Source: a virus (taxonomy: Duplodnaviria > Caudoviricetes). Taken from it: 51,358 nt of DNA. This document shows positions 2,094 to 47,269 of this stretch, in pieces (the first letter of the stretch is position 1; each line of letters starts with the position of its first letter). The notes under the pieces were generated by a model that made no database searches, was not told where the DNA came from, and was given only the letters and a program-made list of their open reading frames with translations. The DNA lies in the IMG/VR virus record IMGVR_UViG_3300030616_000032, positions 1-51,358 of that record; one strand, 5' to 3'. Both the position numbers and the translations under genes were made by a program.

Positions 2094-3164
2094 TTACAGC
2101 TCCCTTTTCCAAAGTTTCCAAGGCCACAGAAAAGTGCGGCTGGCCTTTGTGTTCGTGTTTTCGTCGATAATGTCATTGACCTTTCTGGTCCAGCTGTGGT
2201 CGTCCTCAGAGAAAAGGGCCTTCAGCTGCATCGCAACAGCCTTCCAGTCCGTGCGCGTCGCCTCCTTAGTCTTCCACGTCACCTTCTCGCCGTCACCGGC
2301 GTCAATGCCCTCGTCAGTGCCGATCAGTCGCTGCAGGTCATGCTTCTTTTTCTCGACCCTGGCCTTCGCCCGCTCCAACGCCAGCCAGTGTTTCTTGGCA
2401 ACCGACAGGTGCTTTGCCTCGGCCTCTGTGGCCTTACGAATGGTCTCAGGCTTTGTCTGGTGTGTCATCAGGTCTGGAGGTAGAACGTGAGGGACAATGT
2501 ATGTTTCCCAGAACTCTTTTTCGGCCTCAATCAAAGACGCCTCGATCTCCATGTTGCGCTTGATCGTGTAGACCCTGAAGTCAAGGTTGTTGCGGATGAG
2601 GCTCGTCACCAGATCAAGCGGCACCCCACCTTCCATTACGGCCACCAAGACAGAGAAAATTTGCTCGTCTGCGAACACTACCGGAACGTCCACGCTTTCG
2701 GCGTTGGCAACAGCCATTGCGTGTCGCACCTGTATGTCATAGACTTCGGGGATCTCGTCGCTTCCGTCCTCTCCCCATTCGTCAACGTAATAGATGCTGG
2801 CAGATTTGGCCTCTACCAGCGTCCGTGGTTCTTCAAACGGAGAGGAGGTAAACCCGTCTGGGGTGGCCGTCATCCACTCGTATTTCCCATGCCGAAGCAT
2901 CAGTGAATCACCGATCCCCACCTTTGCGCTCTGCCTATAAGCATCCAAGATAGCCGGTTCAAGCACATGCCCCCGGTGCATGGCAGGTGTCATTTCCTGC
3001 TCACCAGCCTCGTTCCACTTATCAAGGGCCACATCCCGTGCGCTTCGCCAATTAGAAAATCCGAGCGCACTAGGCGCATCACTTGCGCCCAGGCTTTTGC
3101 GCCGAGCCTCCAGCCACGCAGGGCTATTCGGTGCCACGTCAACTACAATCGGTTCATCGGCCAT
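2094..3164 (-). CDS. YqaJ-like viral recombinase / lambda-exonuclease family
   Basis: WLEARRKSLGASD, RGHVLEP, ATPDG, LVEAKS, YDIQVRHAM motifs. Confidence 0.9.
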   Translation of the reverse strand: MADEPIVVDVAPNSPAWLEARRKSLGASDAPSALGFSNWRSARDVALDKWNEAGEQEMTPAMHRGHVLEPAILDAYRQSAKVGIGDSLMLRHGKYEWMTATPDGFTSSPFEEPRTLVEAKSASIYYVDEWGEDGSDEIPEVYDIQVRHAMAVANAESVDVPVVFADEQIFSVLVAVMEGGVPLDLVTSLIRNNLDFRVYTIKRNMEIEASLIEAEKEFWETYIVPHVLPPDLMTHQTKPETIRKATEAEAKHLSVAKKHWLALERAKARVEKKKHDLQRLIGTDEGIDAGDGEKVTWKTKEATRTDWKAVAMQLKALFSEDDHSWTRKVNDIIDENTNTKASRTFLWPWKLWKREL

Positions 3165-3175
3165 AGTCAGCTCCA

Positions 3176-3439
3176 TTAAAAAGGAAATTCGTCAGAGGGC
3201 TCACTTGTCTGCGGCTCAGCGCTTTTGGGCTTAGGCGCTGACTTCGGCGTGGTCTTTATTGTCGGGTCCGAAGGGAATATGCGGTAGTCGGGGTGCGTGT
3301 CCTTGGTTTTGTTGTTTGTAAAGGCCACGAAATATCTCTTGCGACCTTCTATCTCGATGGTCATGCTCAGATACTCGTTCCCGGCACGGCTTTTCATAAT
3401 CCAGATTGCGCCGATATCCTTGTCTTTGTTATCCGCCAT
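3176..3439 (-). CDS. DUF736-like small ssDNA-binding protein
   Basis: IGAIW..SRAGNEYLS...PDYRI motifs and acidic DEFPF C-terminus. Confidence 0.7.
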   Translation of the reverse strand: MADNKDKDIGAIWIMKSRAGNEYLSMTIEIEGRKRYFVAFTNNKTKDTHPDYRIFPSDPTIKTTPKSAPKPKSAEPQTSEPSDEFPF

Positions 3440-6014: not shown

Positions 6015-6166
6015 CGCATCCTCTTCTTATCTTTTCTATCTGCAAGCCGCTTGAACATCTGCATCTGCCGGTCTGTGACCGTATATTCGCATTTCGGGCA
6101 TTTCCATTCGTCCTTTTTCTGCACGAACTCAACGTCACGCTGCGGACATTTTATTGCGACGGCCAT
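6011..6166 (-). CDS. Small zinc-ribbon-like protein (51 aa)
   Basis: Hand translation MAVAIKCPQ...WKCPKCEY; ATGA overlap with next gene. Confidence 0.55.
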   Translation of the reverse strand: MAVAIKCPQRDVEFVQKKDEWKCPKCEYTVTDRQMQMFKRLADRKDKKRMR

Positions 6167-9100
6167 TGCTTTACGAGTTCCCGCAAACGGCGCAGACGGC
6201 TGCGATAGGCATCCTTCCGCTTGTAGCCTGCCCCGCCTTCTTCTTTTGAGCGTGTCCAGTATTTCTGAAAGGCGTCAACCATGTCCTCTTTCGAGTAGCC
6301 CTTGAGTTCCTCCATCGCCTTCTCTCGTGACTTCTGCCATGCCTCTTTGCGCTCCTCGAACTTCTCGTCGGCCTTGGAGCCCCATTCCTTGCGGTATTCA
6401 CGGTCAAGCACCGGCTCCTCGTCTGTCAGGATCTTGATCTTCCTGCCTGCATGGTTCTGCTTGGCCGTCTCGTATTGTTTGACCTGTCGGGGCGTCAGCC
6501 TGTCCTGATATGACAGCGGCCCATCATTCCACTTCGCATTTTCCAGCGCCTTCTCGTACAGGTACTTGCGGTCTTCTTCTGAAGACATCATGTAGTCCGC
6601 ACGTTCTTTGCCCACTGCGTTTCTGACAACATCCCTCACGTCCTTCAGGAACTGCGTTGCGCCCTCTATTGGAATGCCGGTCAGCCTCGATGCCTTGAAA
6701 GACTTATTCAGCGCCTGCTCGAACTTAGCCCATGCCTTGGAGTCGCCCTTCTTGTGCTTGCCGGTTCTCTTGGAATACTCTTCGTCATTCACAAGAGCAA
6801 CAATGCTTTCCCCAAGTAGCCGGAAGGTGTCGGTAGCATCTTTTACTGCATCGAACACCGGGGCGTTCATGGCGTCCTGGTCGTGGTAGTCGGATACCAC
6901 GGCCTTGAACATATCGCCGCCAAGCGGCAGATACCCGGCGAGATTCATCAGCGCATCTTTCAAGTAATCCTCGGGCTCCTTGTCGTCGCCCTTGCCGCGA
7001 ATCAATCCATACAGCGCGAGTCGTGCGGTGTTCGCCAGCGCCCCCATCATCAGAACATACCCGGCTGCGCGGGCGAATTCAGGACTGGCAATCGTGCCCT
7101 TCTTGTGATACTGGATGTTCATATTCACCAGAGCCTTGTCCATGTATGATCTGAACATTGTCAGATACCGGATCAGCTCAGACTTAGATCCGCCAAGTTG
7201 CGTCCGTGTCTCAACGTCGAAGGTCGGCTGTGTGCGCCTGACGGCTTTCTCAGCCAACGCCACCGCATTCTGAAGCGTCCCGCCCTTTGCTTCTGTTGAC
7301 AAGTGCGAAGCCAGAACGATTCTCTCTACGGTTGCCTGATCGAATCTGCTGATGAAATATCCCAGCTTGTTCCGCAGTGCCCGCTTGCCAGTCAGTATGG
7401 GCGACAAATCTCGCGCTGCAGACAGAGCGCCCAGGTCACGGTCAAACTTCATCTCGGCCCACCTGTCGCTCAGAATTTCAGACTGGCCAACGATCTCATC
7501 GATGATCTTCCGATTGGCGCTGCTTAACTCCTTGCCGCTCAGCGCTTTAAGCAGGTATATTTCGCCAACCTCGGTTGCGGCAGAAGGGTAAGACAGTGTT
7601 TGCGCCACCCACGTTGACGGCCTCAGCGACAGCGTACTGATCGTGTAGTTGCCTCGCAGTCTCGCAAAGATGCCCTCATCCGGGTTCTTCTTGATTGAAC
7701 CCCGCAGACGATCCATCATGCCTTCAAACACGCGGAACGCATCATTGCCGAACCGCGACTGGATAGATGCCCGCACTTCTGGGTCTTTGAGTATCGAGTA
7801 CATGTTTCGCATGGGCGACAAGTAGGCCGACAGTGCTGCGGATTCGTTTATGTGGTTGTCGAACACCTGAAACACATCTGGGATAATCAGTTTGGCTCTG
7901 CTGCCCACACGTTCCTGCAGGAAACCCGCGTTCTCCAACGGGTCGATCTTCTGCTGGACCATAAGCTGGTCACTGATGCTCTTCTTGATCTCATCCGAAT
8001 AGCGGAATATCCGCATATAGTTTTCTTTCCGCGCCATCTCAAAGCCGTACCGCTCAAGCGTGGCTTCATTGATGGCATTCTTGATCTCGCCGTTCATCGT
8101 GTCCTGGATGGCATTGGCGACCTTCATCTCCTCGTCGCTCATTGACTTTCTGATTGCAGCCAGATCATCCTCGGTAAGCGCCCGTGAGCGAATGTCCTGA
8201 TCGCCCTTCCGTGCGCTATAGTCGTTATAGACAAACCCGCCACTGGTCAGCAATGCGTTCAGGCCTTCGGCGTCCTGGCCGAGAAGATACAGGTACAGTT
8301 TCTGTCCCTTGGTCAAGTTGACGTTCTTGTCGTTGGCAAAGTCGAACTTCTCTGTTGCGGTTTTTCCGCCAAGCAGGTGCGACCATGTTTCGGGGATCTT
8401 CATGTCTCCAACACGCTTCTTGTATGCCGCCCAGAACGATTTGCCAACCCGACTCATCTTTGCCCTGGCATTGTTGATTTGGTCGCTGAAGAACTGCTGC
8501 ACCGGCCCGTTATCTCCCTTGTCGAACCTCACAGTAAAGGCCTCGATGTTGTATCCTATGCGGTTCCATGCCTTACCGATCGGCCCTTCCTTTTCGACAA
8601 CACGCTTGCCGCTTGGGTCTTCTTGGGGTTTGCCAACTCTTTCGATGATCGTATCTTTGACGTTTGCGCGCTTGCCAAGACGTTCCATGTGGATGTTTTC
8701 GGCAAGACCCTTCTGGGCCTGAATCAGATAGTTAATCGTGTCGGCAACCTGCTGCAACTCTTCGACGCTCATGTCGTAGATATTGCGCTTGCCTATCAAT
8801 TCCGCACCTTGCTCGACGTACCGCGCCAACTCGTCCGGCGTTTCCATCTCCTTGTTTTCGGTCTGCAGGTACTCAATGACGTTCTTCAGTCCCTTGGCCC
8901 GCTTCTTGAAATCGATGCCCTCAACAAATGCCGTCATCTCGTCGCGCAGGTGCGGAAACATCTTCTTGAATGCGTCACCGCCAGAGGAGAACTTCTTGGC
9001 CTTGTCCAGAGCCTTCTTCACACCAGCGATAGCGTCCGAATGCTCTTTCTGTGCGGCAATCACGTCTATGCGCTCAATGGCCTTGACGAAGCCCTGTTCG

Positions 9101-12100
9101 GTTGTGGCATTCTTGATCGCCGCCATCGCCTTTTCGCGTACTCCAGCAGGCAGGTTCTCCCTCGCATAGTCAAACAGTTGCTTCTTCAGCTCCTGCATCT
9201 CGGCCTTTCCTGCCTTCCATGCCTTGTTTTTTGCTATTGCCAGCATCTTGTATAACTGAGTCTTGGTTAGATCAATCTTTTCCCTGCCCTTGAACTGGGC
9301 CGTTTCTTCTTTGGTTACAGCCTTGCCCGGCCTCCTTGCCTCGACGGCCTCCTTGATCTTCTTTATCATAGCGTCTTTGGACAGCCCGGTGAGCCTGAGG
9401 CCCAGCCTCTTGCCGGCCGATCGCAGCTCATCCTGAGAAAGATCGTCTATGTCTTCTTCCTGCATTTCATTCAGCCACTGCGCGAACATCTCGTCGGCTT
9501 CGGCGGTAGTAATTTCGCCTTTGAGCGCGAATTTGGCGCCTGATGACCCTATCCTATGCTCGTCCATTAAAGCATCGTACAGTGCTTGCGCGTCAGTCTT
9601 GGAGCCTATAGTGAAGTCTACTTCTGGGCTCGACTCAAGGTTTTGGGCAATAACATCCCATCCACCGCCGTCTTGGGGAAGTCTCCTCCAAAGGGTGGGC
9701 GCGCTTTCCTTTATCTCCTGAAGGTCGATACCTGCCGCTTCTGCCTGGTTCTTCCCGGGCAAGCCACCGGCTATTTTCTCAAGATAATGCGTTATCGGGT
9801 AGCTGACCTTTCCTATTGGGGATGGCTTTGCCTTGGCTTTTGTGCCGCCAAGCATCTTGTCGAAGAACGCCCTCACATCGTCGTTCAGGCGGACGTTGAT
9901 CGGCAACCCCGTGAGCTTCTTGTAGATATCGGTCAGCCATTCCTTGAATCGGGCGAACACAGCCTGCAGCTTCTTCGTTGGCGCCACGCCCTCGCGCAGG
10001 TACTTCTCAAACGCATTGGCAAACCGCTCTTCGGTCTTGCCCGTCCACTTCGATTCCTTGACACCGGCCCACTGCTCAATGGCCTTCATGTCGGCAGGGT
10101 AATACTGGCTGGCGATTCGGCGCATCATGTGGGCAAATTCGTGAACAAAACTGCTTGCGTCGGCAGCCCTGCCAGCCCGAATAACAGCCTTACCATTTTC
10201 AAGAAACTTGATTCCCGCCCGTTCTCCACGCTTCGTGCCGCGCTTCACTTCTTGGATTAGGCTGTCGTAGGCGTCATCTGCGCTCTCAAAATGACCGTCT
10301 TTGACAAGCCGCTCCACCACAGCGTCGGCAATGGCGATGTTCGCATCTGTCTCTTCGTCGGTATAGTCAAACACGTCTTTGACGTTTTCGCGGAACTGGT
10401 CGCGTGTCATGCGGCTGTATGCCTGCTTTGCGGCTGGCGTGGCCATCTCAAGGAAAATCCGCTTCAGCTTCTCTTGGATTCGGTCAAGCTGCTTTCTGAC
10501 TGTTTCAGCGGAAACGCCAAGCTCTTTTGATAGATCAACCTGAGTTCTGTCGCCCATAATCACGTCAACATAGGGCTGATCTTCCTCTGCTAAGGCATTG
10601 ACGGCCTGACGCATAACATCCCGCTCGTCCTGCTCCATGCCCTCGACTTCGGGAGCTTCAACCTGCTCGGCCTCGGCAATGGGGACTTGCTTCTTGCGCT
10701 CCGCCGCCTGCTTGCTGGTGACGCTCTTCAGGTGCTCTTTAATCCATTTGTTGGCGAACCTCTCGAACGGTCCTTTGTCCGGATTGTATTTTTCGGCTGC
10801 TTTTTGAAGCCCGTCAAACGCGGGACCGGTCAGTTCATCTGGCTTGATTCCGAACTTCTTGCCGTACCGCTTGGCGTATTTGTCCACCAAGCCGATGTTG
10901 GCCGTGACAAGGCTCTGTTGTTCGGCGGAGAGCGGGGCTACTTCTTCTCCGGCACCTTCACGCTCGACAGGAGCTTCCCGTTCTTGTCCCTTATCTCGAA
11001 CGTCCCGCCCCTGAAGTCTATCCCCTCTTTCCGCATCGACATCAACCAGGAACCCAGGGAGTTCTCCCTTGGCCGGTCTAATTTTTTGTTCTGTTGCGAC
11101 ACGTTTTGCCTCCTCCATCTTGTTAGCGGCTTCACCGGTGGTGGCCCCTGTATCATAAACTAAGTGAGCCCCCTGAAAGGTTCTCAGCTCGCCGCTTTTG
11201 TCAATGAACCTGAATGCCATGTTCTTGAGGTCTTTGTTGACCCTATCAAGAACTTCAGTAAAGTCCTTGCCGGACACCTCGTGAGCCATCAGCTCGTCTC
11301 CGCCCCATCGGGCGACATCCAAGCCCTCGGCCTTGAGTACCTCTGCCACGCCTTTTAAGAGAGCGTCTCCGCCTTCGTAGGCCAGACGGTCATTTACCGC
11401 CCCGAGCCCAACTACGTCCATCGCGGCCTTCTGGCCCTTCAAGCCTCCTTCGTTCTCAAGGGCCTGCCATGCGATCCTCGTTGGGAGGCCGGTAACAACG
11501 TCCATCTGAGATTCGTAAACCTGATGAAGAAGCTGATCAATTCGTTCAGCCCTTACATCGTCAGGCAGATTCGCAATCTCAGCAACCAACCCGCCCCGAT
11601 TCTCCGGCGACAAAGCCTCTACCCGAGATCTCAACTCTAAGTCCTGCCGCCTCTCCACCATTATTGTGCCACGCTTTTCCTCAGACGGCAACTCTTTTTC
11701 TGCTTCCTTCCCCTCTAACATCTCAACGGAGTCTATTATGTCTTCATTTACGACCTCTATGTCGCCTGCTGCTTGCGCTGTTATTACTGCGTCATATCCT
11801 TCTGTGTATTTTTCATCATCAACAAAGCCAAGGCCTTCTTCGTCATATTCAACTTCTGCCAACTGGCTTGGTTTTATCTTTACCCTGTATATTCTGATAT
11901 CTGAGTAGTCTGGCTTTTCGTATGGTTCGGTTTGTCTCTTTACGGCATCTTCCGCATAGCCTCTCGCATCTTCAATATCGCTACTAAAAAAAGCACCGCT
12001 CGTTGCGTCTATCCGAAACGCACCCTCTATCATTCTGTCCGTTCCGTGATAAGCGGTTATCGTTCCCTCTTCGTCAACCTCAAAATCATATTTCTTGGCA

Positions 12101-13869
12101 AGGTCTATAGTCTTCTTTTTCTCTTTGGGAATATCCGCAACCCCCTGTTTTTCGGTATCTGCGGCCTCTATCTCTGTCGGGATGGGTAATGGGGCACTTT
12201 CTTCTGTTACCTCGCTCAGAGGCTCTTTTTGGGCCTCCTGTGGGGCTTCTACGGCCTGCTGCTGCGCCGATAGCTCCTGAAGTGCCTTTGCGCGGGACTC
12301 AGCCGTCCTATATTGCTCTGGAAGCGGCCCTTTGGGCAGACCCATTCGTTTCGCAAACTCGCGGCGGGAAACACGCTCTGTAGCGGCACCTGCTGCCGCA
12401 TATCCAGCACCCATCACGCCGAATGAGACCGCTTCTGCCAGAAGTTGCTTGCCTTCTGGGATTATATCCTCATCTGAAACGCCGGTTACATTCCTCAATG
12501 CAGAGCCAAGGCGCTCTTCGCCCATCTCCATAAGCATACCATTCCAGCCAAGCTCATTCAGCCTGTTGGCCCATTTGCCGGTTCTGCCGGGTATCTTCAG
12601 CCATTCGCTCTTCATTGCGCCTACAATCTTTGCGAACTTGGGAGATTTCGATGCGAGTTTCTGAACCGCCTGACCGCCAAGCTTGCCCATCACCTCGCCC
12701 GATTCTTCAGACAGGTATTCGATGAAGGTGTCTCCAACGGCCTTGTAAAGCGCGGAAACAGGAGTCTCCTTGGATTCTTCGATTCTCGCATTATAGGCAT
12801 CGTCGAAGACGGCCTTCGGGTTTGTTCTCTCAAGATAGCCTGCGGCTACCCTCGGAATGCCGACTGTTGCTGTACGTGCCGCTGCGCTTGCAGCCAAACC
12901 AACGCCGCCACGCACGGCCTTAGCAGCCAGCCCCTTGCCCAGCCCGGCAAGCATCTTCTGCGCCCCGGCTTTCGCCCCGCTTGCCAGTCCGCCGGAAGCA
13001 AAGAACTCTGTGACAAACGCAGGCATATCCGTCATAACGTCAACGGCCATGCCGCCCCATGTCTGTCCGCGGGCCTGCCTGTACTGATCGACGATCCACA
13101 GGTTGTGCAGGAATTCCATGTCATCAGCGTATTTCTCTGACAGAATATCCTCTCCAGCCTCTTGTGCATCCTTTATGCGATTCGACCGCTTGCGGATATC
13201 GTACAGCTCGGCAGCCTTCCATCCTACTCCAAACCCGGGAATCTTTTCTGGGATCGACGTACCGGCAAGCGTCTCGCCCATGTCAATCTCGCCCATTTGC
13301 CCCCACAAGTGACGCGGAGGAATGTTGAACGTCTTGCCCGGGAGCTTGATCTTGATCGTCATATCGTCTGGAATCTGCATCGCTGGGTTCTCGCCCATAA
13401 ACACGGATTTCAGATTGCGCGATGTCTCAAGGTCAAACTTATTCGGATCTATCTCGGTCTTTCCGGCCTTTCTCGTTTTGCCGATAGCGGCAGCAGACTT
13501 CCTGATGGCCCCAGTGTCGTTATACAGCATGTCCTTGTAGTCTCGGTAGTCGCGTTCGTCCCATTCGCCCATGTCACGCTTGAACCGGGCCAGCTCCAAA
13601 GGATTCTCGCCACTTGCCGTAGCCGCAAGCATTCGCTTGTAAATGCCGATTCTCCGGTCCATCTCGTCAATAGACTGCTTGTATTGACGGTTGAACGCAT
13701 CCACATCGGTATCGCCCCACTCGCCAAGCTCGGTTTTCATAGAGATCAGTTCGTCAGGGTCTTCGTTTGCGGCAACAATCTCGGTGGCCACTTTAGATAT
13801 GTCGTCGAGCCGCTTCTGGTCAAACGGCTTAGTCGCTGTTTCCTTTTGAGGGGATAGCAATTCGGTCAC
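6151..13869 (-). CDS. Giant polyvalent internal virion/ejection protein (ART + GGDEF + sigma70 + metallopeptidase domains)
   Basis: 2572 aa, at the usual ejection-protein position after tail genes; domain motifs listed separately. Confidence 0.85.
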   Translation of the reverse strand: MTELLSPQKETATKPFDQKRLDDISKVATEIVAANEDPDELISMKTELGEWGDTDVDAFNRQYKQSIDEMDRRIGIYKRMLAATASGENPLELARFKRDMGEWDERDYRDYKDMLYNDTGAIRKSAAAIGKTRKAGKTEIDPNKFDLETSRNLKSVFMGENPAMQIPDDMTIKIKLPGKTFNIPPRHLWGQMGEIDMGETLAGTSIPEKIPGFGVGWKAAELYDIRKRSNRIKDAQEAGEDILSEKYADDMEFLHNLWIVDQYRQARGQTWGGMAVDVMTDMPAFVTEFFASGGLASGAKAGAQKMLAGLGKGLAAKAVRGGVGLAASAAARTATVGIPRVAAGYLERTNPKAVFDDAYNARIEESKETPVSALYKAVGDTFIEYLSEESGEVMGKLGGQAVQKLASKSPKFAKIVGAMKSEWLKIPGRTGKWANRLNELGWNGMLMEMGEERLGSALRNVTGVSDEDIIPEGKQLLAEAVSFGVMGAGYAAAGAATERVSRREFAKRMGLPKGPLPEQYRTAESRAKALQELSAQQQAVEAPQEAQKEPLSEVTEESAPLPIPTEIEAADTEKQGVADIPKEKKKTIDLAKKYDFEVDEEGTITAYHGTDRMIEGAFRIDATSGAFFSSDIEDARGYAEDAVKRQTEPYEKPDYSDIRIYRVKIKPSQLAEVEYDEEGLGFVDDEKYTEGYDAVITAQAAGDIEVVNEDIIDSVEMLEGKEAEKELPSEEKRGTIMVERRQDLELRSRVEALSPENRGGLVAEIANLPDDVRAERIDQLLHQVYESQMDVVTGLPTRIAWQALENEGGLKGQKAAMDVVGLGAVNDRLAYEGGDALLKGVAEVLKAEGLDVARWGGDELMAHEVSGKDFTEVLDRVNKDLKNMAFRFIDKSGELRTFQGAHLVYDTGATTGEAANKMEEAKRVATEQKIRPAKGELPGFLVDVDAERGDRLQGRDVRDKGQEREAPVEREGAGEEVAPLSAEQQSLVTANIGLVDKYAKRYGKKFGIKPDELTGPAFDGLQKAAEKYNPDKGPFERFANKWIKEHLKSVTSKQAAERKKQVPIAEAEQVEAPEVEGMEQDERDVMRQAVNALAEEDQPYVDVIMGDRTQVDLSKELGVSAETVRKQLDRIQEKLKRIFLEMATPAAKQAYSRMTRDQFRENVKDVFDYTDEETDANIAIADAVVERLVKDGHFESADDAYDSLIQEVKRGTKRGERAGIKFLENGKAVIRAGRAADASSFVHEFAHMMRRIASQYYPADMKAIEQWAGVKESKWTGKTEERFANAFEKYLREGVAPTKKLQAVFARFKEWLTDIYKKLTGLPINVRLNDDVRAFFDKMLGGTKAKAKPSPIGKVSYPITHYLEKIAGGLPGKNQAEAAGIDLQEIKESAPTLWRRLPQDGGGWDVIAQNLESSPEVDFTIGSKTDAQALYDALMDEHRIGSSGAKFALKGEITTAEADEMFAQWLNEMQEEDIDDLSQDELRSAGKRLGLRLTGLSKDAMIKKIKEAVEARRPGKAVTKEETAQFKGREKIDLTKTQLYKMLAIAKNKAWKAGKAEMQELKKQLFDYARENLPAGVREKAMAAIKNATTEQGFVKAIERIDVIAAQKEHSDAIAGVKKALDKAKKFSSGGDAFKKMFPHLRDEMTAFVEGIDFKKRAKGLKNVIEYLQTENKEMETPDELARYVEQGAELIGKRNIYDMSVEELQQVADTINYLIQAQKGLAENIHMERLGKRANVKDTIIERVGKPQEDPSGKRVVEKEGPIGKAWNRIGYNIEAFTVRFDKGDNGPVQQFFSDQINNARAKMSRVGKSFWAAYKKRVGDMKIPETWSHLLGGKTATEKFDFANDKNVNLTKGQKLYLYLLGQDAEGLNALLTSGGFVYNDYSARKGDQDIRSRALTEDDLAAIRKSMSDEEMKVANAIQDTMNGEIKNAINEATLERYGFEMARKENYMRIFRYSDEIKKSISDQLMVQQKIDPLENAGFLQERVGSRAKLIIPDVFQVFDNHINESAALSAYLSPMRNMYSILKDPEVRASIQSRFGNDAFRVFEGMMDRLRGSIKKNPDEGIFARLRGNYTISTLSLRPSTWVAQTLSYPSAATEVGEIYLLKALSGKELSSANRKIIDEIVGQSEILSDRWAEMKFDRDLGALSAARDLSPILTGKRALRNKLGYFISRFDQATVERIVLASHLSTEAKGGTLQNAVALAEKAVRRTQPTFDVETRTQLGGSKSELIRYLTMFRSYMDKALVNMNIQYHKKGTIASPEFARAAGYVLMMGALANTARLALYGLIRGKGDDKEPEDYLKDALMNLAGYLPLGGDMFKAVVSDYHDQDAMNAPVFDAVKDATDTFRLLGESIVALVNDEEYSKRTGKHKKGDSKAWAKFEQALNKSFKASRLTGIPIEGATQFLKDVRDVVRNAVGKERADYMMSSEEDRKYLYEKALENAKWNDGPLSYQDRLTPRQVKQYETAKQNHAGRKIKILTDEEPVLDREYRKEWGSKADEKFEERKEAWQKSREKAMEELKGYSKEDMVDAFQKYWTRSKEEGGAGYKRKDAYRSRLRRLRELVKQWPSQ
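9350..9450 (-). other. Rho-N/SAP-like helix-extension-helix module in giant protein
   Basis: LSQDELRSAGKRLGLRLTGLSKDAMIKKI. Confidence 0.45.
9850..10260 (-). other. Zincin-like metallopeptidase domain (approximate bounds)
   Basis: ADASSFVHEFAH (HExxH) and downstream EERFANAFEKYL. Confidence 0.8.
10450..10935 (-). other. Sigma70-like domain, regions 2 and 4 (approximate bounds)
   Basis: LVTANIGLVDKYAKRY...GLQKAAEKYNPDKG.FERFANKWI (r2); TQVDLSKELGVSAETVRKQL..IQEKLK (r4 HTH). Confidence 0.8.
11090..11510 (-). other. GGDEF-like diguanylate cyclase domain (approximate bounds)
   Basis: DVVTGLPTR, MD..GL.AVND.L..EGGDALL, ARWGGDEL, ANKMEEAK. Confidence 0.85.
11720..12070 (-). other. ADP-ribosyltransferase-like domain (approximate bounds)
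   Basis: AYHGT, GAFFSSDIEDARGYA, IYRVKI, GYDAVI. Confidence 0.7.
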
Positions 13870-30167: not shown

Positions 30168-30869
30168 TCAAAAAACAGACAAGCTAGCGAGGTTGCTGAT
30201 CTCAGTTGCGGTCAGGACTCGCTTAAATATCAATAGATTTCTAAGCGCAATAGATGGCGCACCCGACTCAATGCTTTTGTTTCCCCAACACCCTATAGTC
30301 AGGTCTTGATTATTTGTTAGAGTCAACGGATCATCAACACCGTCTGTCTCTCCTGCATATTGGTCAACATAAAATGTAGCATCCCCATCTCTATCACACG
30401 TTACCGCAACAAAGTGCCAATTCATATCAAACAACAAAGAAATCCGATTTGTTGTTAATCCCGTGTATGTATCGTTTACCTGGCTGCCATCGTTTATCCT
30501 TAAGTGTAAACCGTTGGCGCCCACAAGAACAAGCCGGCTCAATAGAAATGCCCATCCAACATTTGTTCCATTAGAGGATGCTTTATCACAAACCAAGATA
30601 GGATCGTCTGCAATATCAGCATTGGTAGTTCTTACCCATAATGCAACACTGAAATCTTCTGTACCAATCAAGTCACCCCTGTACGTCGCATCATCAGCGG
30701 CTACATAATCAGGAGTATCTATATCCAAACTCAACGCCTTCCCAAACGGACTATTCACAGGAGTCGGATTACCGTTGACCGTGTACCGCCTCCGCAGATC
30801 GTTCAGGTCCGATAGGGACTCAGCGAGCACGCAATCTTTGTCCTGAAGAAACCGGCGCATTTCGCTCAT
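30168..30869 (-). CDS. LamG/ConA-like domain protein
   Basis: DFSVALWV, WHFVAVT, LTIG, IFKRVLTATEI. Confidence 0.8.
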   Translation of the reverse strand: MSEMRRFLQDKDCVLAESLSDLNDLRRRYTVNGNPTPVNSPFGKALSLDIDTPDYVAADDATYRGDLIGTEDFSVALWVRTTNADIADDPILVCDKASSNGTNVGWAFLLSRLVLVGANGLHLRINDGSQVNDTYTGLTTNRISLLFDMNWHFVAVTCDRDGDATFYVDQYAGETDGVDDPLTLTNNQDLTIGCWGNKSIESGAPSIALRNLLIFKRVLTATEISNLASLSVF

Positions 30870-39451: not shown

Positions 39452-39558
39452 AAAAAGCGGGCCGGGCAGGGATTGGCTTAGACTCTCAATGAGCGCTAAT
39501 TTACAGGGGGTCTGTCGGCCCCCAATGACAGAATCACCGTTTACCCCGTCACCGGCCC
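39452..39558 (-). ncRNA. Structured element with closing stem and T-tract
   Basis: GGGCCGGTGACGGGG...CCCTGCCCGGCCC then TTTTT; internal GGGGG/CCCCC hairpin. Confidence 0.4.
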
Positions 39559-39888
39559 TTTGAATCTCTGGTCGAGGTGGGCTTTATCGGCGTCACGTCA
39601 ACACCCGTTTCCGAGCCCCATAGCTTCCCGTGCACGGTACACAATAGGCCTCCTGGCCGAACCTCGACATATACACTTGGAAACAGTATGAACCATGATC
39701 TGCGGTATGGCAAATGTTTCTGTGGGACAACTGGGGAACGTTTGGCAAACATTTTTGAAAACCCTAGGTGACAAAAAATGGCAGGGGTAAAAAATGGTAG
39801 AAAATTTTGGGGGGCTATGTAGTAGTACCTGCTCGACCGGGGGCGGGGTCGGGGTTCAACTTCTGTGCAGCAAGCTTCAAAAAAAACT

Positions 39889-39985
39889 CCTCTGTGCCTC
39901 TGTGCCTCTGTACGTGCCGCCCTGCCCTGTGCCCTGCGCCCTGGCGGCTGCCCTCCTGTGCTCTGCTGCGCCCTCTGTGTGCCTG
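39889..39985. repeat. Degenerate CTGTGCC heptamer array
   Basis: Multiple imperfect ctgtgcc/ctgcgcc copies. Confidence 0.7.
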
Positions 39986-40113
39986 CATGGTCACAATGAC
40001 AGGTGCCCATATCAGCCCATACTGCCCGTTTAGGCACTGAACAAAACCAGCCCGAGGCGTTGTCAGAATGCCCGTTGATCATAACCGCTTGTACCTGTGG
40101 GAGTTATGCCTGA

Positions 40114-40141
40114 ACGTCCGATAACATTCATTACGTTAGGT
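40114..40141. other. dif-like XerC/D recombination site
   Basis: ACGTCCGATAA-CATTCA-TTACGTTAGGT (11-6-11) vs E. coli dif GGTGCGCATAA-TGTATA-TTATGTTAAAT. Confidence 0.55.
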
Positions 40142-40261
40142 TAGCAGCGCAACTGAGCCCTTTCGTTACGTGATTGTAACAAAGAACGGGGCAAAACGTT
40201 ACGATTCGCAGACTAATTGCTTGAAATTGTTACGATATCCCCATAATCCCCCTCTTAAACG

Positions 40262-40385
40262 TTCTTTCCTGTTCCACTTTCCTTTCTTCGTTCCTTTCTT
40301 CTTTCTTCTTTCTTCTTTCCCTTCTTCTCTTCTCTTCGTTCTCTTCTTCTCTTTTCCTCTCTCTCTCTTCTCTTCTTCTTCTCTT
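40262..40385. repeat. Polypyrimidine low-complexity tract
   Basis: ~120 nt almost exclusively C/T. Confidence 0.9.
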
Positions 40386-40414
40386 ATACGTTTAAGAAGA
40401 AGATAAGAAGGGAG

Positions 40415-40447
40415 AACGTATAATAAACGTAACGTATAATAAACGTA
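40415..40447. repeat. Tandem 16-mer AACGTATAATAAACGT x2
   Basis: Direct reading. Confidence 0.85.
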
Positions 40448-40479
40448 AGAGCTGAACCTGGATTTATTTTGTTTTGTGG

Positions 40480-43200: not shown

Positions 43201-43917
43201 TTGAAAATGAAAAAACAAACCGCCGTTCTGTATGCGCGATTCAGCCGGGGGTGGCCCTCCGCGGACAAGTGCGAGAGCGTCGAGTCTCAGCTAGAAGACT
43301 TGCGCCGATTCTGCATGACCAACAACATCTGGATGGCAAATGAGTTCAGCGACAAGGCGCTGTCGGCAAATGCCGAGTGCACGGGCGTGTGGGATGCGAT
43401 TCATGCGCTGAAAAAGGGCTGGCTGCTGATAGTCCGGTCGTTTGATCGTCTGCCGCACGACGATGTGTTGTTGCGCGTCATACGGCACAAGCTTGATCAG
43501 AACGGCTGTCGGATAATGTCGATAACCGAGCCGGATATCGTCGAGGATGCGTCCGAAAAGCGGTTTGTCCGAAACATCATCCAACGTGTATCAATCTACA
43601 ACATGGAGATCACACGGGCCAGAAACAGGGCGAAATTACGCAAGCGTCGGTTTAAGAGCAGCCGCTATTGCCCGTATGGATGGAAGCCAAGCAAAGAGAG
43701 AGACGGGACGATAGTGCGCGAACCGAAAGAGCGGGCCGTCGTGGACATGATCGTTATGTACTACAAGCAGGGCAAAAAGCGACAACAGATCGCCGATCTG
43801 CTTGTGAAAAACGGCGTGAGGACCCGCAACGGAGGGAAATGGGATCATACCCAGATCAGTCGAATCCTGGCGCGGGAGGGATTTCCGCGTGGGCATAAGA
43901 TTTCACAAGAGGGGTAG
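43201..43917 (+). CDS. Serine recombinase (resolvase domain plus recombinase-type C-domain)
   Basis: YARFS catalytic Ser, SQLEDL, SFDRL, PYGW, IADLL..NGVRTRNGGKW. Confidence 0.85.
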   Translation: MKMKKQTAVLYARFSRGWPSADKCESVESQLEDLRRFCMTNNIWMANEFSDKALSANAECTGVWDAIHALKKGWLLIVRSFDRLPHDDVLLRVIRHKLDQNGCRIMSITEPDIVEDASEKRFVRNIIQRVSIYNMEITRARNRAKLRKRRFKSSRYCPYGWKPSKERDGTIVREPKERAVVDMIVMYYKQGKKRQQIADLLVKNGVRTRNGGKWDHTQISRILAREGFPRGHKISQEG

Positions 43918-45283: not shown

Positions 45284-45558
45284 GTCTGCTCCTTGTCAAC
45301 CAAGCTAATCTTGATCGCCTTCACCAATTCCTTCGCTGCCAATTCCTTGATTCCTCTCTCAAGACCAGTTCCCCATATCTCTCGATCCGAAATCAAATTC
45401 TGTATGCGCCTGTTCATGGATATTTGCGAAAACTGATCCCTAATGTACTCTTTCGCCACATCAAATACCGCCTTATGCGCCCATTCGCGGATATCCTCTT
45501 TGGTGATGCCAAGCTCGTTGTGCATGTAGTTCTTAAACATCTTCCATTTGTCGTTCAT
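45280..45558 (-). CDS. Hypothetical protein
   Basis: Start MNDKWK in boundary repeat with AAGGAG RBS. Confidence 0.65.
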   Translation of the reverse strand: MNDKWKMFKNYMHNELGITKEDIREWAHKAVFDVAKEYIRDQFSQISMNRRIQNLISDREIWGTGLERGIKELAAKELVKAIKISLVDKEQT

Positions 45559-45800
45559 GTCTGCTCCTTGTCGAGATCGGCGATCAACCTGCCAACCTGT
45601 GCTTGCAATCCATGTATAGTACACTTCGTCCAATCTATTGCGTGCATCCACTCAATCACCCGCTGTCTGGCGTTCCATGCTATCCGCAATTCGCACGTCC
45701 GTATGCTTTCAACCGTTGCATAGGCGCAACTGCATTGGCCGACACAATTCGTTGGGCACAAATCAAGGCTACACTTCAACAATTCCTGCTCCATGCTCAT
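45555..45800 (-). CDS. Cys-rich protein, paralog of 46191-46424
   Basis: LKC.L.LCP.N..G.C...YAT...I..C.LR..WNA. Confidence 0.6.
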   Translation of the reverse strand: MSMEQELLKCSLDLCPTNCVGQCSCAYATVESIRTCELRIAWNARQRVIEWMHAIDWTKCTIHGLQAQVGRLIADLDKEQT

Positions 45801-46015
45801 CCCCTTGCATCTTTCGGCGCTTGTCCTGCCGGTAATATGCGCCATGTCTTTGTGCGCCTCCAATACCCGCTGTACCCATCCATCTGTGCAGCAAGAACCG
45901 CCCTCGGATTTTCTGCGCAATAATGCCCCGTGTCAACGCAAGTGATGAACGGCATCCACCCTGTGTTTCTGTACTTTCTCCAAAGCGTGTATGAATCATG
46001 CTTTCTCTCTGTCAT
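45797..46015 (-). CDS. Hypothetical protein
   Basis: Start MTERKH within 38-bp repeat. Confidence 0.55.
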   Translation of the reverse strand: MTERKHDSYTLWRKYRNTGWMPFITCVDTGHYCAENPRAVLAAQMDGYSGYWRRTKTWRILPAGQAPKDARG

Positions 46016-46025
46016 ACTCACCCTT

Positions 46026-46136
46026 TCATGTTATAGCTGGCGGGGCAGGTCACGGCATGGGCAAGGACGCAGGATATGAGAACTACGCAACGCCCGTTGA
46101 GGCGTTTCCCACGCTACTGCCGCCGCCAGCATATAA
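46026..46136 (-). ncRNA. Inverted-repeat-closed structured element (family member B)
   Basis: GCTGGCGG(C)GGCAG / CTGCCCCGCCAGC stem enclosing a second stem and two hairpins. Confidence 0.55.
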
Positions 46137-46190
46137 TTCAACGACCTTGAAAGGCTTTGCATTTGTGACGCATAAGACACAACGAACAGT

Positions 46191-46424
46191 CTATACATCT
46201 GTGTTTTTGCATGCCAATATACGCTTTCTTAACGCATCCCTCAACGCCGCCGCCTCATCACGGGCCCTTTCGGATACGGGCTGATGGGCGTTCCATGATA
46301 CACGCAATTTACAACTCTGTATGGTTTTTTCTGTTGCATAATCACGATCACATCGTCCCATCCAATTCATAGGACACAGTTCAATGTCGCACTTCAACTC
46401 GTCCGGCTTGTCAATCATCTCCAT
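46191..46424 (-). CDS. Cys-rich protein, paralog of 45555-45800
   Basis: Shared motif; GAGGAG RBS. Confidence 0.6.
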   Translation of the reverse strand: MEMIDKPDELKCDIELCPMNWMGRCDRDYATEKTIQSCKLRVSWNAHQPVSERARDEAAALRDALRKRILACKNTDV

Positions 46425-46428
46425 CTCC

Positions 46429-46593
46429 TCATGTTATAGCTGGCGGGGCAGGATTACGCGCTTCTCGCGCCGTCAAAACTACCAGCAAAACCGACCTGCC
46501 ACATACGGATGTTGCGATGGAACACCAATCGCGCATAAGGTATATTCCATCGCGCTGGTTTTATGTGTGTCGCGCCACCCGCCAGCATTGTCA
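46429..46593 (-). ncRNA. Inverted-repeat-closed structured element (family member C)
   Basis: GCTGGCGGG/CCCGCCAGC, ACCAGC/GCTGGT and GCGATGGAA/TTCCATCGC nested stems. Confidence 0.5.
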
Positions 46594-46630
46594 CGGCTCT
46601 TTCGTCCATTCCTTCTTCATACTCACCCTT

Positions 46631-47269
46631 TCATGTTATAGCTGGCGGGGCAGGGCCTGCGATCTTGTCTAACTCAACCCATTTGTCGTACAGGCATGGG
46701 TAATGTACTCGCGTCAATTCACGTTTTCGCTTGCCGCCCTTCGGACAGCAAAAACAAGATACGCGACTAAACACATCGTACAAGCCACCCCAATCATATC
46801 CAAGACTCTTGCAGTACGCCAAGCTATCTGCTTCACCCATTCCTGCCTCAATCAATGGAAACCGCACCGGCCATTTGCGGTCCTTCATCCATTTCGTCTG
46901 TGTCCGGTGAGATTCGTCTGCCGAAAACCCAACGTATTCAGTTTTATCACCCTTGATGTAGCGGATATACTTCATGCAGGTTCCGTGCTTACACGCCGTA
47001 CACCAGCCGCCAGAAGATTTTGGCCAACCATAACACGCGAGCTGTTCGTTGAAATGCCGATAATACCGCACCCGTATAATATGTATGCCAGTATTCGCAA
47101 TAACGCGATTGATATGATCCTCCATTTGCGGGTAATCCCATTCACACTCGAAATACACCGCTCGATCAATTGGCATTCTCCGTTCTAACATCAAATGAAT
47201 CGTTGCTGTAGAATCTTTGCCAAACGATGTTGAAACAATATTTTTTGATCCACCCGCCAGCATTGTCAT
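46631..47269 (-). CDS. PAPS-reductase-family (PP-loop) protein
   Basis: STSFGKDSTA, WCTACK, RFPLIE, RVSCFCCP. Confidence 0.88.
   Translation of the reverse strand: MTMLAGGSKNIVSTSFGKDSTATIHLMLERRMPIDRAVYFECEWDYPQMEDHINRVIANTGIHIIRVRYYRHFNEQLACYGWPKSSGGWCTACKHGTCMKYIRYIKGDKTEYVGFSADESHRTQTKWMKDRKWPVRFPLIEAGMGEADSLAYCKSLGYDWGGLYDVFSRVSCFCCPKGGKRKRELTRVHYPCLYDKWVELDKIAGPAPPAIT

Follow-up and report, generated by a model that had tools for sequence, protein, structure and literature searches.

Integron cassettes carry a single gene with complementary ends at the gene termini, and their attC sites, as they are described in PMC5027507 (Nivina et al. 2016), display L boxes, extrahelical bases and a terminal loop; according to the same description, TT/AA is the integron crossover point and the triplet is not important per se. 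Phage CALINs, as outlined in PMC9892861 (Qi et al. 2023), place such sites in an integrase-less phage context. Boundary sequences have been proposed as a source of phage mosaicism (PMC3029335), and the PeSL modules (Arbiol et al. 2010, PMC2839356) are presented as units of promoter plus terminator; in the accounts given there, short direct junction repeats beside non-essential genes can drive shuffling. IS1111 elements, as treated in PMC11187229 and PMC11208160, carry subterminal repeats of 7-17 bp whose extensions differ in length, together with a core that is repeated, while the C4 antisense RNA of P1/P7 is depicted in PMC5320573 as having a three-stem layout.

The window analysed here, a stretch of 51,358 nucleotides, is the whole IMG/VR record IMGVR_UViG_3300030616_000032 and belongs to a tailed phage whose genes lie almost all on the minus strand. 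In IMG/VR it is entered as a linear sequence, 60% complete. The start of the record recurs in its final 120 bases, with one or more differences between the two copies (positions 1-140 against the last 140 bases), and because the record ends overlap the genome may be closed, a caveat for all statements on absence made below. In the accessory region, after the replication initiator, the loader and a Lar-like gene and before RusA, there are three units, each built of a left arm, a cargo and a complementary right arm, the cargoes being a PAPS-reductase-family gene, 122 nt and 66 nt. The parts are listed in the order of the coding strand, followed by a nearby recombinase gene:

47250..47268, minus strand: left arm L1, beginning at TGA and overlapping the start of the PAPS-family gene (MTMLAGG)
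46631..47269, minus strand: cargo 1, PAPS-reductase-family gene (PF01507, phrog_424), 212 aa, with both arms in frame (MTMLAGGS...GPAPPAIT)
46617..46654, minus strand: right arm R1, with a 24-nt core at 46631-46654 that ends in the stop TGA
46591..46620, minus strand: mini-ORF of 9 codons (MKKEWTKEP), whose stop overlaps the GTG of L2
46575..46593, minus strand: left arm L2, 19 nt identical to L1
46453..46574, minus strand: cargo 2, 122 nt, containing a single perfect hairpin of 9 bp at 46514-46553
46429..46452, minus strand: right arm R2, 24 nt
46191..46424, minus strand: orphan ORF of 77 aa between units 2 and 3, a paralogue of the ORF at 45555-45920
46117..46136, minus strand: left arm L3, a variant, pairing with R3 over 18 bp with two bulges, from TT/AA
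46050..46115, minus strand: cargo 3, 66 nt, predicted to form, on the coding strand, a stem and two hairpins
46012..46049, minus strand: right arm R3, with a 24-nt core at 46026-46049 and the same 14-nt tail as R1
43201..43917, plus strand, opposite to the operon direction: small serine recombinase (PF00239 + PF07508: resolvase plus short recombinase domain)

Exact comparison bore out most of what the sequence-only reading had claimed on the repeats. At 46026-46049, 46429-46452 and 46631-46654 the right arm has the same 24 nt, the identity extends to 38 nt between 46012-46049 and 46617-46654, and 19 nt are identical between 46575-46593 and 47250-47268; the third left arm, L3, has only 10 nt in common with L1 and L2. 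Start codons carry the left arms, while the right arms close with a stop codon followed by an RBS, the 14-nt tail beyond the core, common to R1 and R3, containing an RBS and an ATG. The sequence-only reading had the 3' arm read in different frames or non-coding; the distances from left to right arm are 609, 136 and 83 nt (0, 1 and 2 modulo 3), and therefore the PAPS gene is the only unit reading both arms in one frame. No exact repeats in the genome are longer than those of the right arm, at 38 and 24 nt; a right-arm 16-mer had 3 matches with up to 3 mismatches versus 0.24 expected, CCGCCAGC occurred 10 times versus 2.5 expected, with 6 of the 10 inside the array, and a 9-nt complement to the right arm was found in 9 of 20,000 19-mers drawn at random from this genome outside the array. 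The triple of bracketed units is real and non-random; going by this one genome, the cargo may be interchangeable.

The pairing of L1 and L2 with the right arm extends over 9 bp, as against the 18 bp of L3 and R3, and is in register, with G opposite the C of AAC. In units 1 and 2 the perfect pairing begins 6 nt inside the ends, and in unit 3 it begins at TT/AA. That both small cargoes are folded, as had been proposed, was found to be modestly true of the 66-nt cargo; the 122-nt cargo folds no better than shuffles, its interior reaching z = -0.1 and -0.8 on the two strands. For the 66-nt interior alone, the coding strand gave z = -2.1 (matched by 7 of 200 shuffles), which is marginal because four interior folds were tested, and the other strand gave z = +0.6; with its arms, unit 3 reached z -4.85 on the coding strand. 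A derivation of cargo 2 from a decayed attC hairpin was rejected, as 9-bp hairpins are frequent here (16 versus 9.3 in shuffles) and the attC covariance model described below gives it no score.

Among the small frames of the array, the 77-aa ORF had no homologue among 5.8 billion proteins, and the 46-aa frame of cargo 2 had no credible one: its sole match, a repetitive fungal protein from 1.84 billion representatives searched, was dismissed as chance. The frame through L3 (46086-46190, minus strand; KVVELYAGGG...ASTG) resembles the first, N-terminal motif of cytosine methyltransferases; this likeness was unsupported, a profile of 3 sequences giving E 3.2 and rank 4 of 1,695 segments and PHROGs giving nothing. 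The orphan ORFs at 46191-46424 and 45555-45920 are cysteine-rich and share 51% identity over 43 aa. The arms show 100% identity next to paralogous ORFs with 70%, which means that they were copied recently or are under selection. Further exact repeats of 12-20 nt, mostly at stop-RBS-start junctions, are spread over the genome (45278-45297/45553-45572; 42097/42543/42752; 38165/38368/38554; 3445/3636; 4263/4721); for example, DKEQT ends two adjacent genes. Given these other start/stop junction repeats of 15-20 nt, such copying is common in this phage.

The record encodes a YqaJ/RecE-type nuclease at 2094-3176, and no PF00589 tyrosine recombinase and no PF02371 (IS110) transposase were found in it. 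The terminase had no match in 401 Planctomycetota genomes. Apart from the array, a virion-region protein of 2,572 aa is encoded at 6151-13869 (minus strand), with stretches presumably resembling a GGDEF-type domain and a sigma-factor-like segment. The region 39549-40460, lying between divergent gene blocks, looks non-coding and contains tandem runs rich in purines and an 18-nt repeat in duplicate (40415/40431), and an ORF in the structural region (30168-30869, minus strand) gave a weak PHROG match (E 2e-4) to a toxin-labelled family.

The PAPS-family protein has 214 homologues, and their alignment is confined to the stretch that the arms enclose; the agreement among 50 aligned homologues is restricted to the inside of the arms, which sit exactly at the gene termini. 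Gene flanks were inspected in 15 of the 165 loci fetched for this protein. Five distinct relatives with DNA context had at least 55% identity; attC-type ends were present in three of these five, and the arms of the window in none. The relative in NaphS2 (L191) is a canonical attC cassette, and the NaphS2 genome has an integron integrase above cut-off; a second (L113) lies in a phage array whose sites face against the genes, with the R box decayed upstream and intact downstream, and a third (L112), also from a phage, stands behind one inverted attC-type site. The close relatives L111 and L004/L114 revealed no attC ends. L113 is part of G005 (L536:3100-9550), an accessory region of a phage where some 15 attC-like sites lie inverted, several of them shortened to half-sites; half-sites and repeats of 16-56 nt occur among the sites of this array, and no integron-integrase match was obtained within the 25-kb record. 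In an alignment of fourteen sites from these loci, which sets the phage coding strand against the NaphS2 bottom strand, covariation exceeded that of all 500 shuffles; as the structure was set by hand on that same alignment, this result leans towards the structure. In 32 of the 96 homologues that could be scored, out of 119, a pair of S/P/A/H and Asn directly follows the last conserved motif, the outcome expected of an AAC box; this count has no control, and the Asn may belong to the protein itself. The cassette ends of the relatives are private and pair over 0-10 nt counted from GTT, whereas the arms of the window are common to three units. Scanning for attC-type left halves returned 100 distinct matches, 1 of them a true site.

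Compared with attC, the array agrees in having complementary cassette ends at gene termini around a single-gene cassette. The right arm ends in the R-box-like GCTATAAC, directly beyond the protein's conserved end, at the place where the relatives have their AAC box, and the same 9-mer also closes a cassette in L113. Together with the integrase-less phage context and a cargo family that is attC-borne in relatives, this end likens the array to the phage attC sites and CALINs outlined in PMC9892861. AAC is present in all right arms; L1 and L2 carry GAC where GTT is expected and L3 carries ATT, and no AAC/GTT R box was found at both ends in the array. Neighbouring arms form no L-box stem, so the attC hairpin with extrahelical bases and a central spacer is missing. 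Up to an E of 10, a covariance model had no match within the array, and the same model recovered 2 held-out G005 sites (28.3 and 22.6 bits). With a profile of 16 left half-sites, R1/R3 ranked 191 of 102,656 positions at 6 bits (most held-out true sites reached 12-23) and R2 ranked 2,111 of 102,656. In comparison with the sites described in PMC5027507, the window thus has no L boxes, extrahelical bases or terminal loop, no GTT in L1/L2, and arms that serve three units instead of being private. Because of the absent L-box stem, the absent model score, the low profile ranks, the lack of GTT in L1/L2 and the sharing of arms, the arms of the array are not attC sites, but at best relics of them.

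Beyond this genome, pattern scans, blastn and a 401-genome scan retrieved only chance matches to the arms. A scan of IMG/VR with a 16-mer found 3 loci, all chance matches, and a metagenome scan with a 17-mer found 66 loci, all of them lacking both a second copy and a partner left arm in the 260 nt upstream; at one of these (L059), attC-like letters follow the 17-mer match and the left arm is absent. A variant of a left-arm 15-mer matched 36 loci by chance, and a gapped scan for the arm pair in 35 of the 64 parts of the collection gave 112 distinct matches, none like the unit. In 401 genomes of the phylum of NaphS2, 8 matches to the arms were counted, not above the reversed control. The blastn search by which the sequence-only reading had proposed to catalogue further cargo yielded, against 50,697 phages, 5 short matches with E 2-8. 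Six IMG/VR contigs with terminases 54-80% identical to that of this phage stop before the accessory region; close relatives with terminase identities of 75-83% are also on record. The arm pair is not described in the literature found by topic, none of which was searched by sequence, making this weak evidence of novelty.

We favour, with a probability of roughly 0.4, an origin of the arms as decayed R-box ends of one integron-type (attC) cassette, inverted in the operon and then copied and refilled via short repeats. What was observed in this respect are the shared arms, their positions at starts and stops, the attC habit of the relatives and the lack of an intact attC and of an integrase. A cassette would have entered the accessory operon in inverted orientation, as in related phages, its genes being read through the site; the hairpin interior with the L boxes and the terminal loop would then have been lost, leaving the complementary cassette ends. 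Crossovers at the 19-38-nt repeats, plausibly through a pathway of the YqaJ/RecE type, may have swapped or duplicated modules, and such swaps would spare translation because the ends carry a stop codon, an RBS and a start codon. At present, the arms would probably act as gene-boundary linkers rather than as integrase substrates. Such a descent is favoured by the attC cassettes of three of the five relatives, the GCTATAAC end, the TT/AA start of unit 3 and the in-register pairing, and also by the half-sites and repeats of G005, the identity of the arms, the other junction repeats and the YqaJ recombinase. It is weakened by the missing covariance-model match and L-box stem, the GAC in L1/L2 and the low half-site ranks, as well as by the shared ends, the pairing that begins 6 nt inside, the two of five relatives without attC and the fact that no relative has these arms. 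The cassette-exchange system suggested earlier is supported as far as a cassette origin is concerned, with arms at gene termini and an attC-borne gene in three of five relatives; an active, dedicated exchange is not, as the record yielded neither a tyrosine recombinase nor an IS110 transposase and the scans no second genome with the arms.

The arms might also be plain gene-boundary repeats of a mosaic accessory region with no cassette ancestry, their complementarity being left from one ancestral RNA or DNA stem, that of unit 3, whose halves were copied separately. Every arm indeed coincides with a start, or with a stop plus RBS, there are other such repeats in the genome (45278/45553, 42097/42752, 38165/38368, 3445/3636), and a long stem is seen in unit 3 alone; what the boundary sequences of PMC3029335 and the PeSLs of PMC2839356 have in common with this locus are short direct repeats located where genes with unrelated flanks meet, the PeSLs differing from it in that the repeats of the window lie on start and stop codons and form a complementary left/right pair. 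We hold this explanation to be unlikely, since it does not account for the correct alternation of left and right arms, three times, for arms on both termini of a gene that is cassette-borne in relatives, or for the R-box-like end. Even less probable in our view is that the arms are RNA stems cut by RNase III or RNase P, which would release a C4-like RNA from unit 3, a second RNA from unit 2 and a monocistronic mRNA from unit 1. Unit 3 folds on the coding strand only (z -4.85 with and -2.1 without its arms) into a basal stem, two hairpins and a single-stranded linker, in outline like C4 of P1/P7 and c4-2 in the descriptions of PMC5320573 and PMC5737381, from which it differs in having neither an Rfam match nor a cognate target in the genome. 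No Rfam family matched even at E up to 10, including the C4 and c4-2 models, and the loop and linker of unit 3 found no outstanding target in the genome, the best reaching 13.5 of 16 on a flat background; moreover, the interior of unit 2 is unstructured, and the stems of units 1 and 2 measure 9 bp, one of them spanning 600 nt. The RNA scaffold that the sequence-only reading had put forward therefore appears to have little in its favour.

A separate site-specific system deserves a similar weighing, in which the arms would delimit a mobile unit of its own kind, bearing 9-bp inverted repeats in a subterminal position and two copies of a TGA core, excised as a circle and inserted at start/stop overlaps (ATGA/GTGA) by the nearby serine recombinase or by a host enzyme of the IS110/IS1111 type. 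The right-arm identity stops at TGA and the L1-L2 identity starts at TGA, although start and stop codons alone explain a TGA at both ends. Joined at TGA, units 1 and 2 would each form a site of two 9-bp arms placed symmetrically around 14 nt, the removal of unit 2 would leave a normal stop-RBS-start junction, and the serine recombinase is located 2.1 kb from the array. The outer flank of L1 equals the right-arm flank at 9 of 14 positions in register, which 0.24% of genome positions reach; however, 6.5% of the 14-mers with RTGA at that offset reach 9/14 as well, and unit 2 reaches 5 and unit 3, with a different spacing, 3/14. In units 1 and 2, the subterminal inverted repeats, unequal extensions and short core at both ends are reminiscent of IS1111/IS110 elements, as these are described in PMC11187229 and PMC11208160, but the extensions are 7 and 4 nt instead of 7 and 3, this geometry is lost in unit 3, no transposase (PF02371) was found in the record, nor PF00589, and no guide RNA was detectable, guide-like matches of the flanks in the two small cargoes not exceeding 5 nt (longest 4-5). 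In addition, the arms did not occur elsewhere in the scans. Such a mobile unit is thus an unlikely source of the arms. A phage cassette system with its own ends (9-bp repeats, TGA core), run by the small serine recombinase or by an AGC/GCT-using integrase and slotting a gene or small non-coding cargo into start/stop overlaps so that the operon stays translated, is likewise rather doubtful. Several further candidates were discarded: a TG...CA-ended insertion sequence, as there is no target duplication outside TG/CA; a shufflon or invertase, as the arms are not internally palindromic; the geometry known from dif/Xer, which fits only a unit-3 junction; a Chi-like motif, as its orientation alternates; and a retron, as no reverse transcriptase was found among the 68 ORFs scanned.

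Were the arms live sites of an unrecognised recombinase, they would constitute a compact gene-insertion system and provide a function for a small phage serine recombinase. If, as we tentatively prefer, they are the worn ends of an integron cassette, the array would represent a late stage of phage-borne integron cassettes, in which the hairpin has gone and the ends are kept as translation-safe joints; this would, as a result of modest interest from one genome, tie attC arrays to the boundary sequences put forward as a source of phage mosaicism.
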